Virus record (IMG/VR): IMGVR_UViG_2778261035_000005
Strand: one strand, 5' to 3'
DNA from: a virus
Taxonomy: Duplodnaviria > Heunggongvirae > Uroviricota > Caudoviricetes
DNA: 64,000 nucleotides
Below, piece after piece: positions 3,260 through 12,492 of the stretch. Under the pieces are notes generated by a model. The model was not told the origin of the DNA. It saw only the letters and a list, made by a program, of their open reading frames with translations, and did no database searches. Numbering within the stretch: position 1 is the stretch's first letter; every line of letters begins with the position of its first letter. Both the position numbers and the translations under genes were made by a program.

Positions 3260-4441
3260 ATGAGCCTTTATGTTATATCAACATTTAGGTTGGTAACAAT
3301 ATTGCCTGTTAAAAGTGGAATTATCGTGAGCGAGCTGAAAGAGTTAATTACCGAATTAGATTTTGAACAATGGTTGGACACTGAAGGTATCGTTTATCGA
3401 CGTGGAGGCGTGAGTACTCGCGGTCGTGAAGTGAATATCAAGGAGTGTCCGGTATGCGGCAGCTCCAACTGGAAGGTATATTTCAATCTGACCAGTGGCG
3501 TCGGTAAATGCTTCGCTGGTGATCATCCCGAAGAGATTCAGTTCAATAAGCTGGTCTTCCTCAAGCACTACAGCGGCAAATCACGACGACAGTTCGAGGA
3601 ATATGTGCAGAACGCCCTTCTTTCCCAGGGGTGGGCACCAAAGAAAGAAGAGCTAGTGCTTGCAAGCACAGTCGAGTTAGAGGGGCCAGTTGCACTCCCT
3701 CGTCATTACGAACTTCCTATAGATGGCCGTCTTCCAGACTATCTGGTTGAACGAAATATATCGCCTGAAATGGCAAAGTATTTTGACCTACGATACTGCG
3801 TCGAAGGTAAGCACGCCTATGTAGATCCGTATACAGATCAGGTTAAAGGACAGATATTCGATATGCGAATACTGATACCGGTTTACGATCTGGATGGGGT
3901 AATGAAGACATTTCAGGGACGAGACATTACCGGTACAGCAGAACGCCGCTACCTCTTTCCTATGCAGCTTCCAGCTTCAGGTAAGTTTCTCTACAACGGC
4001 TATAATGCAGTCGGCAAACAGACTGTAGTTGTCTGTGAGGGGGCGTTCGATGTTATGGGGGTTAAACGAGCTATTTTTGACGAAGAAACATTACGTGATT
4101 ACGTGGAACCAATAGGAACGTTCGGGATGCATCTATCTGGTAACACCACTCAGGATGCAGAAGATCAGTTAGGCGCGTTCCTGACGCTCAAGGCGCGTGG
4201 GTTACGTAATGTGATCATGATGTGGGATAGTGAAAAGCAAGCTATACGAAACACTATGGCCGCAGCCAGGCGACTGACCAGTATCGGTCTTAATGTGAAA
4301 ATTGCATGTTTGGGCGAGGAAGGACTCGACCCCGGCGATGCGACCCCGGGGCAGATTATCAAAGCCTACTATTGCGCAAAACCTTACTCACGACAGCTTG
4401 AACTTTTAAGCAAGGTAAAAGGCATAGCAGCATTAGTTTGA
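3260..4441 (+). CDS. DNA primase (zinc-ribbon + TOPRIM)
   Basis: CPVCGSSNW...GKCFAGDH zinc motif; VVVCEGAFDVMGV and MWDSEKQ TOPRIM-like; start moved to ATG 3260 after conserved gaaaaacac context. Confidence 0.7.
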   Translation: MSLYVISTFRLVTILPVKSGIIVSELKELITELDFEQWLDTEGIVYRRGGVSTRGREVNIKECPVCGSSNWKVYFNLTSGVGKCFAGDHPEEIQFNKLVFLKHYSGKSRRQFEEYVQNALLSQGWAPKKEELVLASTVELEGPVALPRHYELPIDGRLPDYLVERNISPEMAKYFDLRYCVEGKHAYVDPYTDQVKGQIFDMRILIPVYDLDGVMKTFQGRDITGTAERRYLFPMQLPASGKFLYNGYNAVGKQTVVVCEGAFDVMGVKRAIFDEETLRDYVEPIGTFGMHLSGNTTQDAEDQLGAFLTLKARGLRNVIMMWDSEKQAIRNTMAAARRLTSIGLNVKIACLGEEGLDPGDATPGQIIKAYYCAKPYSRQLELLSKVKGIAALV

Positions 4442-9359: not shown

Positions 9360-9508
9360 TTCCATACATCTCATTAGCTTTTATGGGTGGCTTTCTTATC
9401 GGCTTCGGCATCTGTCGTGATTTAATTAAGCAGGAACTTAAAACCAAAACACTGTGCATCGGAAAGCGTGTGTATCGGGTAGTTCATGAAACAAAGGTTA
9501 GAAAATGA
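9356..9508 (+). CDS. small membrane protein (50 aa, not in ORF track)
   Basis: ATGA overlap with upstream stop; MIPYISLAFMGGFLIGFGIC; start codon lies inside repeated AATGATTCCATAC element. Confidence 0.4.
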   Translation: MIPYISLAFMGGFLIGFGICRDLIKQELKTKTLCIGKRVYRVVHETKVRK

Positions 9509-9795
9509 GCAATTTAACTTCTTGGGACTGGTGGTTGGCCACCTATTTCTTAGCGGCCGGAGTCGCATTCGCCTTTTACGTAGGTCAGTTAGTCGTAAAA
9601 CTGTTGCTGATTAAATTTGCTAGTCATAAACGTATCGATGATGGTCTGTGGCGTCTTGGCACCCTGGTGGAAACTCGCTACGGGCAACTTAAGGAGAACG
9701 AAACCATTACTATCCAAGCGAAACGATTCACTGCCACCATCACAAGAACACCTAGTCGTAGAGTGGCCTTGATCAAAAAAGTCGCAACCGAATAA
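9505..9795 (+). CDS. hypothetical membrane protein
   Basis: ORF track; ATGA overlap with upstream ORF; hydrophobic N-terminus. Confidence 0.45.
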   Translation: MSNLTSWDWWLATYFLAAGVAFAFYVGQLVVKLLLIKFASHKRIDDGLWRLGTLVETRYGQLKENETITIQAKRFTATITRTPSRRVALIKKVATE

Positions 9796-10009
9796 AAACA
9801 CAATGATAAGTATTTACTTACTTATCTTTTATGTATAAGATGACTTTGTTTTCGTTGAGACGCGACTGTTTGAACTTAAATACAAGTGCAAACGAAGAAG
9901 TCTATCTGGCAGTAGCCTAATAAGCCAAACACCAGCGAGGTCAGTTTCCAGCCTCGTTACCGAAATGGGACACACTGAGCGAGTGTGATTGCAGAACGCA
10001 GGAGGGAAC

Positions 10010-10147
10010 ATGAATGTTCCCTCCGATGAAGTAACAGAATGGGCGGTCAGTATATTTTCAACTCATATACGACTCCCGGATTCTTATCCAATGACCGCCC
10101 ATCCTGTTACGTCATTTTGTTCAATTATGTCGTTTATACTGGGTTAA
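10010..10147 (+). CDS. possible small ORF (45 aa) with SD and start codon inside a perfect palindrome
   Basis: aggaggg SD then ATG at 10010; palindrome ggagggaacat-ga-atgttccctcc 10001-10024; may be RNA structure instead. Confidence 0.2.
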   Translation: MNVPSDEVTEWAVSIFSTHIRLPDSYPMTAHPVTSFCSIMSFILG

Positions 10148-10574
10148 AAAGCGGCGACGTAGCCCGGCTGGTATGGTTAGCCAGCACACAACGTTGAGGC
10201 CATTACATTTTTATCAATTCTAAGGTTCTATTCACAGAGATACCGGCGAGCGTTGATATGTAACATGTTGGGCAAACATTCAATCGGAGTAGTGGCCTCA
10301 ACGTTGTGAAGACAGGATAGTTGTGTAGGTTTAACCACTGTTGCCATTGGTGCCTGTTTTCACAACAAATGATTCCATACATCACATTGTATAAATTACA
10401 AAGTAAGTGCAGTCCTCAGAAACATCATCTACTTAAAGATTTTGCCTTCTACTATTGAGCGAAGTCGAAAGCGTCTGGCACTAACGAAAAGTGCAAGTAG
10501 CGGTGCGTTTCCTGGCAGAAACTAAACCGTCGCGATTGGCACTGTTGAGTAATAAATACTGGCAGTGCCGAATT

Positions 10575-10649
10575 GATGGTGTAGCTCAGCGGTAGAGCAG
10601 TTGGCTGTTAACCAACTGGTCGGTGGTTCGAATCCACCCACCATCGCCA
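10575..10649 (+). tRNA. tRNA-Asn (anticodon GTT)
   Basis: cloverleaf by hand: acceptor GATGGTG/CACCATC, D-stem GCTC/GAGC, anticodon loop CTGTTAA, T-loop TTCGAAT, CCA end; differs from host-type tRNA-Asn. Confidence 0.85.
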
Positions 10650-10651
10650 AT

Positions 10652-10727
10652 GCCGGTTTAGCTCAGTTGGTAGAGCACCTGCCTTGTAAGCAGGATGTCA
10701 GCGGTTCGAATCCGTTAACCGGCACCA
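10652..10727 (+). tRNA. tRNA-Thr (anticodon TGT)
   Basis: acceptor GCCGGTT/AACCGGC, anticodon stem CCTGC/GCAGG, loop CTTGTAA, T-loop TTCGAAT, CCA. Confidence 0.85.
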
Positions 10728-10940
10728 ACACAACAGGAAAGAGCATTGAGAACCGCCGAGACTGCCCTGTTTGAAGCGTAAGTCCGTGCAAACGTCATAC
10801 AGTGCTCTTTTCGTTGTGGTGAATGCGGCTAAGCGCACGCGGGGAAATGGTTATATTGATCCTTTGTGATGACTATTGGCTCCGTCCACGGTGGATAACC
10901 AGCCAAAGGACACCGGGAAGCACCCGGCACCACAACAATT

Positions 10941-11027
10941 GGAGAGTAGGGAGCATGGTGCTCAAGCGGTCTTGAAAACCGTCCCATTGCGCAAGCGATG
11001 ATGGTTCGATTCCATTACTCTCCGCCA
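10941..11027 (+). tRNA. tRNA-Ser (anticodon TGA), class II with long variable arm
   Basis: acceptor GGAGAGT/ACTCTCC, anticodon loop CTTGAAA, long variable arm, T-loop TTCGATT, CCA. Confidence 0.75.
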
Positions 11028-11182
11028 GACACAGCGTTGAGCGGTTTGGCCTTTTAATCACCCAGATTAAGACTCCGCTAACATAAACCAGACCGCTCAA
11101 CGCTGTGATAGACAATTACGGCAGACGTTCTTAACCATAGCTTGCTAACATCCTAGCAACACTTTTTTTCAGCGCAAAATTC

Positions 11183-11206
11183 AAAGGGGCTTCGGCCCCT
11201 TTTTGG
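11183..11206. terminator. bidirectional intrinsic terminator
   Basis: aaaggggc-ttcg-gcccc-tttttgg hairpin flanked by A-run and T-run; between tRNA cluster and convergent minus-strand gene. Confidence 0.7.
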
Positions 11207-11211
11207 CTGGG

Positions 11212-12492
11212 TTAATTAAAACCGAATGAATCAAGTTCTGCTTTTAATTTATCGACCATTTTTTCAACTTCAACCACAATTTCGCCAATCACCTTTTCTT
11301 TGTGTTGATTAGAGCTAAGTTCAAAATAGGCGTTATATAACGCATAACGAGACAGAAAATTTCTAATCTCATTAGCGGGTCTAATGGTGTAGCCATCGGT
11401 TAACACGATATCGGTCTGTCTAGAGTGCTTCTCGTTGAGTTTTATTAGCCGCTTTATCTGTTTTTCATCCTTGAGCACTATCACTTTGTTAGCTGCAATT
11501 TCAAGCTCCCAGCCGACAAAATAACGCAGCGTAGAATTTAATTTAGCCACTTCCTCGGCTGCAATTTCCATTTTCAGCTCAATGTAGTTTCGCATATGCA
11601 TAGGTAGGTCATTAAATCTTTGCAGCAAATGTTGTCGGCAGGGGTTGTTGTAAGACCAAAGAACTGCAAACGTAAGCCTATGATAACAGCTTATCGCATT
11701 GGTATTACAGGCCGAATCACCAACAATCATGCGATCAACATAAAACTCTACGTCTTTTTGGTATTCTTTATTGAATATATCAGCGGCATAGGTGTCCAGG
11801 TAATGAACTTTAGATATTGCATCTTCAAAGAAAAGTTCATTTTCGAAGAAGTTGTATTTGTTCAGGAGACGATAAAGTTTCTTTGCGTCGTAGGTTTTGC
11901 TATTGTCGACATTAAGACCAAAAATAGCAATCAGCAGACTTACTTTTGGACTAATGCTGTTGCGCAGTTGTTCTATGTAAGATCTCTTTTCACTATCCGC
12001 AGATGACGGCAGATAGAAGTCTTTATCTACATAATTTAGAATTAAAATAATGTGGTTAACATACTTAATATAAACAGGGTTTTTTGTTGCATAGTAATAA
12101 ACGCCCTTGACGACTTTTATATTCAATTTCAAATTGTACTGACTATCATCCAGTAAGGTTTTGTTAACATCCTCAAGTAATTTATTATGCTGTTCAAGTA
12201 ATATGCCGTACCATTCCTTAAAAGAAGATTTTTTCATTTCAAGAAGCGAAGCCGCCGTCAGCCTGGTCGCTCTCATTGCCGCCTTTGCACTATGCCTTGC
12301 CTCATAAGCGGCCCATGCTGTGGCTAAAAAGGCAAGTGAAGTAGCAAGCGTACCTATAACCTCTACGTTTTCCTTGACGGTATCCCAGAAAATAATCATC
12401 ACTGTCCCAAGTATGAGGATTAACAAAACAGGCATTTTATCAGTGTCTTTGGTTAATTTTGAAACTGAATGATACCTAATCGACCATACCAT
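11212..12492 (-). CDS. hypothetical membrane-anchored protein, A+T-rich (candidate exclusion/defence cargo)
   Basis: ORF track; two N-terminal hydrophobic helices then ~350 aa soluble domain; strongly A+T-rich versus neighbours; alternative ATG at 12435. Confidence 0.55.
   Translation of the reverse strand: MVWSIRYHSVSKLTKDTDKMPVLLILILGTVMIIFWDTVKENVEVIGTLATSLAFLATAWAAYEARHSAKAAMRATRLTAASLLEMKKSSFKEWYGILLEQHNKLLEDVNKTLLDDSQYNLKLNIKVVKGVYYYATKNPVYIKYVNHIILILNYVDKDFYLPSSADSEKRSYIEQLRNSISPKVSLLIAIFGLNVDNSKTYDAKKLYRLLNKYNFFENELFFEDAISKVHYLDTYAADIFNKEYQKDVEFYVDRMIVGDSACNTNAISCYHRLTFAVLWSYNNPCRQHLLQRFNDLPMHMRNYIELKMEIAAEEVAKLNSTLRYFVGWELEIAANKVIVLKDEKQIKRLIKLNEKHSRQTDIVLTDGYTIRPANEIRNFLSRYALYNAYFELSSNQHKEKVIGEIVVEVEKMVDKLKAELDSFGFN

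Follow-up and report, generated by a model that had tools for sequence, protein, structure and literature searches.

The two related inverted-repeat pairs near the transfer RNA (tRNA) genes of IMG/VR virus record IMGVR_UViG_2778261035_000005 (a stretch of 64,000 nucleotides, hereafter the window) are evolutionarily maintained RNA hairpins of the + strand, here called H-B and H-C, that separate tRNAs and tRNA-like RNAs. They are two members of a larger hairpin family inside a protein-free operon of about 1.36 kb (about 9846-11205, + strand) that lacks open reading frames (ORFs) and forms one transcription unit. The window represents a phage-plasmid of the SSU5/pHCM2 type: positions 9800-11250 are 99.9% identical to the E. 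coli plasmid pWP4-S18-ESBL-07_2, and hundreds of relatives are found on non-mobilizable IncFIB plasmids of Escherichia, Klebsiella, Enterobacter, Salmonella (pHCM2), Citrobacter, Cronobacter, and Yersinia pestis (pMT1). The stretch is flanked by a small conserved ORF upstream (9505-9795) and a convergent ORF downstream (11212-12492, minus strand), with no annotated protein gene between them; a protein-coding reading was discarded, since the mechanical ORFs of the stretch are frameshifted or stop-interrupted in relatives and have no Pfam match. The unit consists of a structured leader with a tag template, tRNA-Asn, tRNA-Thr, the hairpin H-D, a domain resembling the STnc100 RNA family, tRNA-Ser, H-C, and terminators, in this order, and contains at least five long hairpins, the two above included.

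Stem conservation on the tRNA strand

The two hairpins that had been reported in an initial annotation of the window are the following:

10187-10206/10289-10308, + strand: H-B, 20-bp stem, 82-nt loop holding two inner hairpins
11030-11049/11088-11107, + strand: H-C, 20-bp stem, 38-nt loop with the invariant motif GACUCCGC

Both inverted repeats lie where that annotation had placed them, and the stems themselves stand, but their length had been given as 16 bp, whereas each arm extends to 20 nt and each stem comprises 19 Watson-Crick pairs and one G.U on the + strand. The pairs had also been described as a bracket around the tRNA cluster. This is misleading: H-C begins 2 nt past the CCA of tRNA-Ser (10941-11027), but the upstream pair ends 266 nt short of tRNA-Asn (10575) and is part of the leader rather than a boundary of the cluster. 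The fold energies of the + strand RNA are -47.8 kcal/mol for H-B and -41.2 kcal/mol for H-C, with z-scores against dinucleotide shuffles of -6.1 and -9.8, respectively, and no shuffle was as good (0/200).

Stem conservation was assessed in 14 relatives with annotation and in 75 loci that were located in IMG/VR by means of the upstream ORF. Across the 20 pairs of H-C, 97.6% of cells are paired (19 distinct sequences) and two pairs have changed on both sides; in a control in which the partners were slid, only 19-45% were paired. The corresponding value for the 19 pairs of H-B is 98.3% (19 sequences), with four pairs changed on both sides. Examples of compensatory change are GUUGAGC/GCUCAAC to GCUGAAC/GUUCAGC and GGCC/GGCC to GACC/GGUC or GAUC/GAUC. 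One-sided changes in H-B give G.U on the + strand at 6 sites versus A.C-type combinations at 2 sites. Since wobble pairs favor the tRNA strand, the selected fold is that of the tRNA-sense RNA, and an operator in double-stranded DNA or the end of a transposon is accordingly less likely. The proposal of structured RNAs made in the initial annotation is therefore upheld by stems kept across genera through compensatory changes, and the conservation in related elements that it had named as a check is found, with stems at orthologous positions and covarying arms.

The idea that the hairpins are terminal inverted repeats of a miniature transposable element, or chance palindromes, is almost certainly wrong. 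The two related pairs do share a 12-nt core, as had been noted, and this could have pointed to a mobile repeat, but CACARCGTTGAG occurs with 0 mismatches only at the four arms within the window, the two elements have unrelated interiors, and the positions are orthologous, with covarying arms, across plasmids of Escherichia, Klebsiella, Enterobacter, Salmonella, Cronobacter, Citrobacter, and Yersinia. Membership in a dispersed repeat class, either repetitive extragenic palindromes or miniature inverted-repeat transposable elements, was rejected on the same distribution of core and loops. Termination, another suggestion of the initial annotation, has to be abandoned on present evidence: strong hairpins, one of them (H-C) near the operon end, might be taken for terminators or attenuators of the tRNA operon, but this is very unlikely, as neither stem is followed by a U tract (the sequence 3' of H-B is AAGACAGG and that of H-C AUAGACAA, without the U run of an intrinsic terminator), 266 nt of conserved leader and three tRNAs lie beyond H-B, and separate terminator-like sites are located further downstream:

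11143-11170, + strand: putative terminator, hairpin UUGCUA/UAGCAA then U7
11187-11205, + strand: putative terminator, hairpin GGGGC-UUCG-GCCCC then U5

Both were recognized by reading, and neither is in the list of a motif scan.

Hairpin grammar and module turnover

Three further long hairpins accompany the two initially reported ones, and the tRNAs and the STnc100-like domain fill the remainder of the array:

10025-10049/10092-10116, + strand: H-A, 25 bp with 2 mismatches, fold z-score -7.6
10303-10316/10353-10366, + strand: H-B', 14 bp, GUUGUG of its 5' arm coinciding with the final 6 nt of the 3' arm of H-B
10575-10649, + strand: tRNA-Asn(GUU), ARAGORN and Rfam
10652-10727, + strand: tRNA-Thr(UGU), ARAGORN and Rfam
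10729-10818, + strand: H-D (CACAAC[A]GGAAAGAGCA ... UGCUCUUUUCGUUGUG), beginning 1 nt past the CCA of tRNA-Thr
10812..10934, + strand: apparently tRNA-derived, STnc100-like domain closed by GUUGUGGUG/CACCACAAC, ending in a CCGGG-AAGCA-CCCGG hairpin and CACCA
10941-11027, + strand: tRNA-Ser(UGA), ARAGORN

Stems of the family that opens with CACA are 19-24 bp long and that of H-A is 25-28 bp, with at most 1-2 noncanonical pairs. The stems of H-B' covary among relatives (GAAGACAGG/CCUGUUUUC, GAAAGCAGG/CCUGGUUUC, GGUCACGG/CCGUGGCC), and H-D, the loop of which is a paralogue of the 5' part of the leader, is about 90% identical to the tRNA region of phage P1. The tRNA set of these phage-plasmids is variable and rich in GUN anticodons (Asn GUU, Tyr GUA, and in one locus His GUG replacing Asn). 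tRNAs with GUN anticodons are the targets of colicin E5-type anticodon nucleases, and the composition of the set hints at a counter-defense role of the phage tRNAs.

The family follows a simple grammar, in which a hairpin opens with CACA(A/G)C 0-3 nt past the 3' end of the preceding module (the CCA of a tRNA) and closes with G(U/C)UGUG. Of the tRNAs in 46 distinct contexts, those without a second tRNA directly behind them are followed, with few exceptions, by an (A)CACA(A/G)C hairpin at -3 to +2 nt of the CCA; the clear exceptions are the tRNA-Asn of two loci (L007 and L080) and the tRNA(CAU) of P1. When IMG/VR was scanned with a hairpin pattern that names no tRNA, 26 of the 44 distinct hairpins recovered began no more than 3 nt past a tRNA 3' end and another 3 had a tRNA nearby. 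Instead of closing its own stem, the terminal GUUGUG strand of a hairpin can pair with the first CACAAC farther 3' and close the following module, an arrangement seen for H-B/H-B' and for H-D and the STnc100-like domain. In the latter case, the closing helix GUUGUGGUG/CACCACAAC covaries (GUUGCGGUG/CACCGCAAC in P1, and a G.U at the same position in Aeromonas phage pIS4-A) and is contained in the minimum-free-energy fold, so that the GUUGUG strand ending the hairpin is common to the closing helix of the next module.

STnc100 is a known prophage small RNA related to PasD. In a local search, positions 10795-10963 align to the full Rfam model (RF02076) with 44.1 bits versus a gathering threshold of 47 (E = 1.6e-8), and the P1 counterpart scores 33.4 bits. 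Like STnc100/PasD, the domain is phage-borne and has a GGUG/CACC closing helix and a CCGGG-loop-CCCGG hairpin followed by CACCA; unlike them, it scores below the gathering threshold and lies in the interval from one tRNA to the next, 3' of a CACAAC hairpin that lends it the GUUGUG strand. The domain directly 3' of the hairpin in a related locus (L115) scores as a tRNA in Rfam, which suggests that the STnc100-like family is tRNA derived. In the copy of the window, the closing helix is acceptor-like, one hairpin resembles a T-arm, and the 3' end, CCGGCACCA, is shared with tRNA-Thr; identity to the P1 tRNA region is about 90%. In P1 itself (L094, 1629-2198), the annotated genes plp and upl are antisense to the covarying hairpin/tRNA-like region 3' of tRNA-Thr and may be spurious ORFs.

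The module content of close relatives ranges from Asn alone through Asn-Ser and Asn-Thr-Ser to Asn-Tyr-Thr, one or two different hairpins, and Ser. In the window, the module made of H-D and the STnc100-like domain is flanked by direct repeats, CCGGCACCA(A)CACAA, at 10719-10741 and 10924-10946 (the repeat is also found at 3917-3939 of locus L002), and in phage Cyrano precisely the intervening segment, 10742-10923, is missing. This pattern indicates that the module would be gained or lost by recombination at the junction motif. In pMT1 of Y. pestis (L005, 2501-2515), the homology of the leader stops 2 nt past H-B and the gene of the F1 capsule regulator, caf1R, follows; as read from this comparison, the caf locus has apparently replaced the tRNA array at the hairpin boundary.

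Such shuffling might mean that the repeats act as DNA, as recombination sites or hotspots for tRNA and small RNA cassettes, either through single-stranded folds like those of integron attC sites or simply as short repeats. The strong differences in module content among close relatives, the precise Cyrano deletion and pMT1 breakpoint, and a tyrosine recombinase gene 3 kb downstream speak for this possibility, and the G.T wobbles of the stems fit folded single-stranded DNA equally well. The hairpins also share with attC sites the character of imperfect palindromes flanking variable cassettes and a CAAC...GTTG-like core. However, their 20-bp stems are essentially perfect and covary, without the extrahelical bases or the unpaired central spacer that define attC; they belong to a transcribed RNA operon, and their orientation is always that of the tRNAs. 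Orthologous hairpins moreover covary at fixed positions across genera, which argues for selection on the fold and not on mobility, and the same hairpins occur within terminator-bounded noncoding RNA operons beside the lysis genes of phages of about 47 kb. We consider a DNA-level function improbable. The repeated junction motif probably promotes gain and loss of cassettes, as a by-product and not as a selected function. In the phages of about 47 kb (L218 and L236), the noncoding operon is about 600 nt long and lies just upstream of the lysis genes, with the order degenerate hairpin, tag element, CACAAC hairpins, a hairpin with the loop ACGAAAC, and an STnc100-like domain.

A tmRNA-like tag template in the leader

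The 730-nt leader that contains H-B is conserved and strongly structured (z-score of the whole-leader fold, -8.5). Its segment 9846-10005 is almost invariant in an alignment of 17 diverse leaders and includes a short frame resembling the coding part of transfer-messenger RNA (tmRNA):

9888..9923, + strand: tag template GCA AAC GAA GAA GUC UAU CUG GCA GUA GCC UAA UAA, encoding ANEEVYLAVA; 10 codons, no start codon, two stops
9936..9965, + strand: putative H-type pseudoknot after the tag, S1 CGAGG/CCUCG (9936-40/9952-56), S2 UUUC/GAAA (9945-48/9962-65)

As in the mRNA-like region of tmRNA, there is a resume codon without a start, a hydrophobic C terminus, and an in-frame stop, and the frame is preceded, in the manner of tmRNA resume sites, by an A-rich ...AUAAAU. 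Upstream of the tag, the frame has no conserved start codon, relatives contain indels of 1-2 nt, and one of them (L003) has an in-frame TGA. The tag piece of the leader matches 405 phage records. The encoded peptide is ANDDLMMVAA in P1 and D6 (in the leader of the ban operon), ANDNVFLAVA in the Felix O1-like phage UAB_Phi87, ANEEMYLAVA in both Klebsiella phage KpV2811 and Aeromonas phage pIS4-A, and ANDNTFLAVA in the Kuttervirus Cba120 (GCU AAU GAU AAC ACG UUC ...). A scan anchored solely on CTGGCAGTAGC...ACACCAG recovered 129 distinct elements with 27 distinct coding versions, all of the form A-(N/K)-(D/E/S)-(E/N/D/T)-x-(Y/F)-L-A-V-A; synonymous variants are present, and TAA, TAG, and TGA are all used as the stop. 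Judged by this pattern of variation, the start-codon-less frame is under selection at the peptide level. The pseudoknot, as compared by eye between phage families, covaries in S1 (CAAGG/CCTTG, TGAGG/CCTCA, ACGGGG/CCCCGT) and in S2 (CCGA/TCGG, CCAA/TTGG, CCAG/CTGG, GTCG/CGAC).

The likeness to tmRNA, including its two-piece and permuted forms, covers a 10-codon frame that begins with GCA and has no start, the A-rich UAAAU-like context, a peptide of the type AN(D/E)xx(Y/F)LAVA, and one or two stops; the putative pseudoknot, covarying as read by eye, comes after them. The Rfam models tmRNA, beta_tmRNA, and tmRNA_permuted give weak matches on exactly the tag part in six independent phage lineages, with best scores of 14-25 bits, far below the gathering thresholds of 47-84; in a Felix O1-like phage, positions 56-294 of RF00023 are matched with E = 0.003. 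The E. coli SsrA tag is ANDENYALAA and so ends in ALAA, whereas the phage tag ends in LAVA. A further difference is that no canonical tRNA-like domain (G3.U70, T-arm, CCA) was found around the tag with ARAGORN or Rfam, and ARAGORN called no tmRNA in the window at its default, 90%, or 80% thresholds. The call obtained at 70% put a tRNA-like domain, implausibly, inside the upstream ORF and was judged unreliable, as were the domains called in P1 and D6 only at 85%. Upstream of the tag, no equivalent of PK1 was found, a simple 5' hairpin taking its place, and a hairpin with the conserved loop GGUGUGAUUAAUAAU lies downstream of the tag in other phage groups but not in the window. A local alignment of E. 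coli ssrA to 9800-10600 scored 31 versus 24.8 +/- 3.3 for shuffled sequences (maximum, 36) and is not significant beyond the tag. As acceptor-stem partners of the conserved 5' GUUUUCGU, a hand search proposed the loop AACGAAA (10483-10489) and the P1-type loop ACGAAAC; these candidates were dropped because they do not covary, and most SSU5-like relatives have AACGUAA.

In a published, exhaustive search for ssrA among the viruses and plasmids of RefSeq (PMC4131195), the only phages reported were mycobacteriophages, Bacillus phage G, and DS6A, and the tag-carrying phages described here are not among them. We found no paper linking tmRNA to P1, SSU5, pHCM2, pMT1, or Felix O1 in the literature searched, which did not cover the P1 genome paper; six tag strings appeared in none of the searched papers, and no data on P1 transcript ends were found there. 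We found no description of the tag-template leader RNA in that literature.

The other features of the leader are as follows:

9815..9841, + strand: promoter-like TTTACT ... TATAAG/TAAGAT, recognized by reading, directly 5' of the start of near-invariant conservation
9855..9876, + strand: 5' leader hairpin GUUGAGAC...GUUUGAAC, RNAalifold consensus
10002..10024, + strand: variable hairpin with strong covariation, six base pairs with both sides changed

In the putative promoter, TTTACTTACTTAT and TATAAGAT are kept in the leader alignment (A1), and a consensus promoter scan made no call there. One-sided changes in the 5' leader hairpin retain pairing (C-G to U-G; G.U to A-U). A possible long-range helix suggested by RNAalifold, CUGGC (9906-10)/GCCAG (10180-84), fits four wobble-preserving changes, whereas a competing local hairpin has a true double change (GCUGA/UCAGC in locus L008). 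In P1, an annotated "dicF-like region" and a terminator lie just upstream of the tag template. The 96-amino-acid product of the ORF at 9505-9795 bears the RefSeq name "C-type natriuretic protein," has no Pfam match, and probably owes this name to an annotation artifact.

In other lineages, the tag element is followed by a tRNA or by an odd tRNA-like RNA, so that a split tmRNA-like system stays conceivable. Some Felix O1-like phages (L228, 466-548; L258, 437-519) have, directly after the tag element, a noncanonical tRNA-like RNA with the acceptor CGGGGCG/CGCCUCG and the alanine identity marks G3.U70, A73, and CCA; it has a UCU anticodon-like loop and no D-arm and is not called by ARAGORN. Two unannotated tRNA-like RNAs are found in Cba120 (L098, 1638-1706 and 1193-1295), one of which, about 150 nt downstream of the tag, has no D-arm, a 7-bp stem with a GAAA tetraloop in place of the anticodon arm, a perfect T-arm, and CCA.

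Hairpin function and significance

The structures exist, are selected on the + strand, follow a position rule, and recur in several phage families. We favor the reading that H-B, H-C, and the related hairpins are processing or insulating spacers, probably cut by RNase III, and give this role in cleavage and maturation an even chance; the processing role suggested in the initial annotation is plausible. To be a substrate of E. coli RNase III, double-stranded RNA is known to need about two helical turns, or at least about 20 bp, and these stems reach that length. RNase E normally uses A/U-rich sites, and the trailers past the CCA (CCA-A-CACAAC...) have none. Stems of about two turns, trailers devoid of RNase E sites, the missing U tract, and the terminators downstream together lead to the reading of processing or insulating spacers. 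In such a scheme, the nearly perfect duplex of about 20 bp in each spacer would be cut by host RNase III or would otherwise mark a cut site; cleavage there would divide the polycistronic precursor into its modules, exonucleases could trim back to the CCA, and the stems would keep neighboring tRNA and tRNA-like modules from misfolding into one another, the GUUGUG strand alternatively pairing with a downstream CACAAC that would close the next module.

RNase III is involved in the processing of phage T4 tRNAs. The hairpins resemble the RNase III stems of the 16S/23S rRNA operon and of phage T7 early mRNA in offering about 20 bp of double-stranded RNA in the spacers of stable-RNA precursors, near mature ends. 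They differ in being local, with structured loops of 37-82 nt that do not enclose the product, and in their conserved base CACAAC/GUUGUG and their start 0-3 nt past the CCA.

Several points weigh against the processing reading. The involvement of RNase III is something that we purely infer, a few A.C mismatches occur within the stems, and H-B comes after a leader hairpin and not after a tRNA. No tRNA lies within 1.5 kb of 15 of the 44 hairpins from the IMG/VR scan; several of these that were examined are followed by a tRNA-like domain (GUGAAUGCG...) ending in a T-arm-like hairpin and CACCACAAC, the L115 domain that scores as a tRNA being one such case, and a motif search found no tag template beside the 15. 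Finally, the stem base CACAAC/GUUGUG and the loop motif of H-C are more conserved than a generic cleavage site in double-stranded RNA requires, and their invariance hints at a specific partner or an independent function.

The hairpins might accordingly have a function of their own, as small RNAs or as scaffolds for proteins, set free by RNase P and 3' processing. The stem would then be a binding platform and the loop motifs the active part, and such RNAs would be counterparts of the stable RNAs other than tRNAs in the tRNA cluster of phage T4 or of a Y-RNA-like combination of a stem and tRNA-like modules. In the H-C loop (11049-11087), GACUCCGC is invariant in 19/19 variants and a small adjacent hairpin covaries, the stem base is kept across otherwise diverged paralogues, the loops of P1 and related phages hold T-arm-like hairpins (e.g., GAGGGTTCGAATCCC and GGGTTCATATCCC), and the neighboring STnc100 family is itself one of prophage small RNAs. 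On the other hand, the loops of paralogous hairpins have no common sequence, and a perfect 20-bp duplex is expected to be cleaved by RNase III in E. coli rather than to persist. The likeness to YrlA (RF02553), a Y RNA-like molecule, is confined to a long stem and, in some P1-type hairpins, a T-arm-like element; the hairpins have no Rfam match, and the YrlA model scores 24.1 bits (24-26 overall) on tRNA-Asn and tRNA-Thr versus a gathering threshold of 69. We regard this small RNA function as the main alternative, possible although doubtful.

At a larger scale, and as a tentative proposal, the operon may be an undescribed modular array of phage noncoding RNAs (a tag-template RNA, CACAAC hairpins, and tRNAs or tRNA-like domains), with a tmRNA-like core that could be used as the coding piece of a split tmRNA or as a decoy. 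The partner of a split tmRNA would be the adjacent module, i.e., the STnc100-like domain here, the CCA-ending RNA without a D-arm in Cba120, and the RNA with G3.U70 and A73 in some Felix O1-like phages, with the hairpins as the joints at which the array would be processed or assembled. If this is true, P1, Felix O1 relatives, Kuttervirus, and SSU5-like phage-plasmids would add a phage ...LAVA tag to stalled host proteins or divert trans-translation. A functional tag would point to a testable way in which phages manipulate ribosome rescue and proteolysis and would account for stable RNAs of phage tRNA regions that have long lacked an explanation.

The usual annotation of phage tRNA clusters shows tRNAs with empty spacers between them, and in P1 dubious antisense ORFs (plp and upl) have even been placed in the spacers. 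The spacers are instead conserved, covarying RNA modules with a grammar that leads from a CCA end to a CACAAC hairpin and from there to a GUUGUG strand common to the next module, and this grammar recurs in SSU5-like phage-plasmids (including pHCM2 of S. Typhi and pMT1 of Y. pestis), P1-like phages, and several lytic groups. The hairpins belong with the structured spacers of stable-RNA operons, and the tag-template RNA without a tRNA-like domain of its own is the part most worth following up. Even as mere processing sites, the hairpins define units for annotating and engineering phage tRNA arrays.

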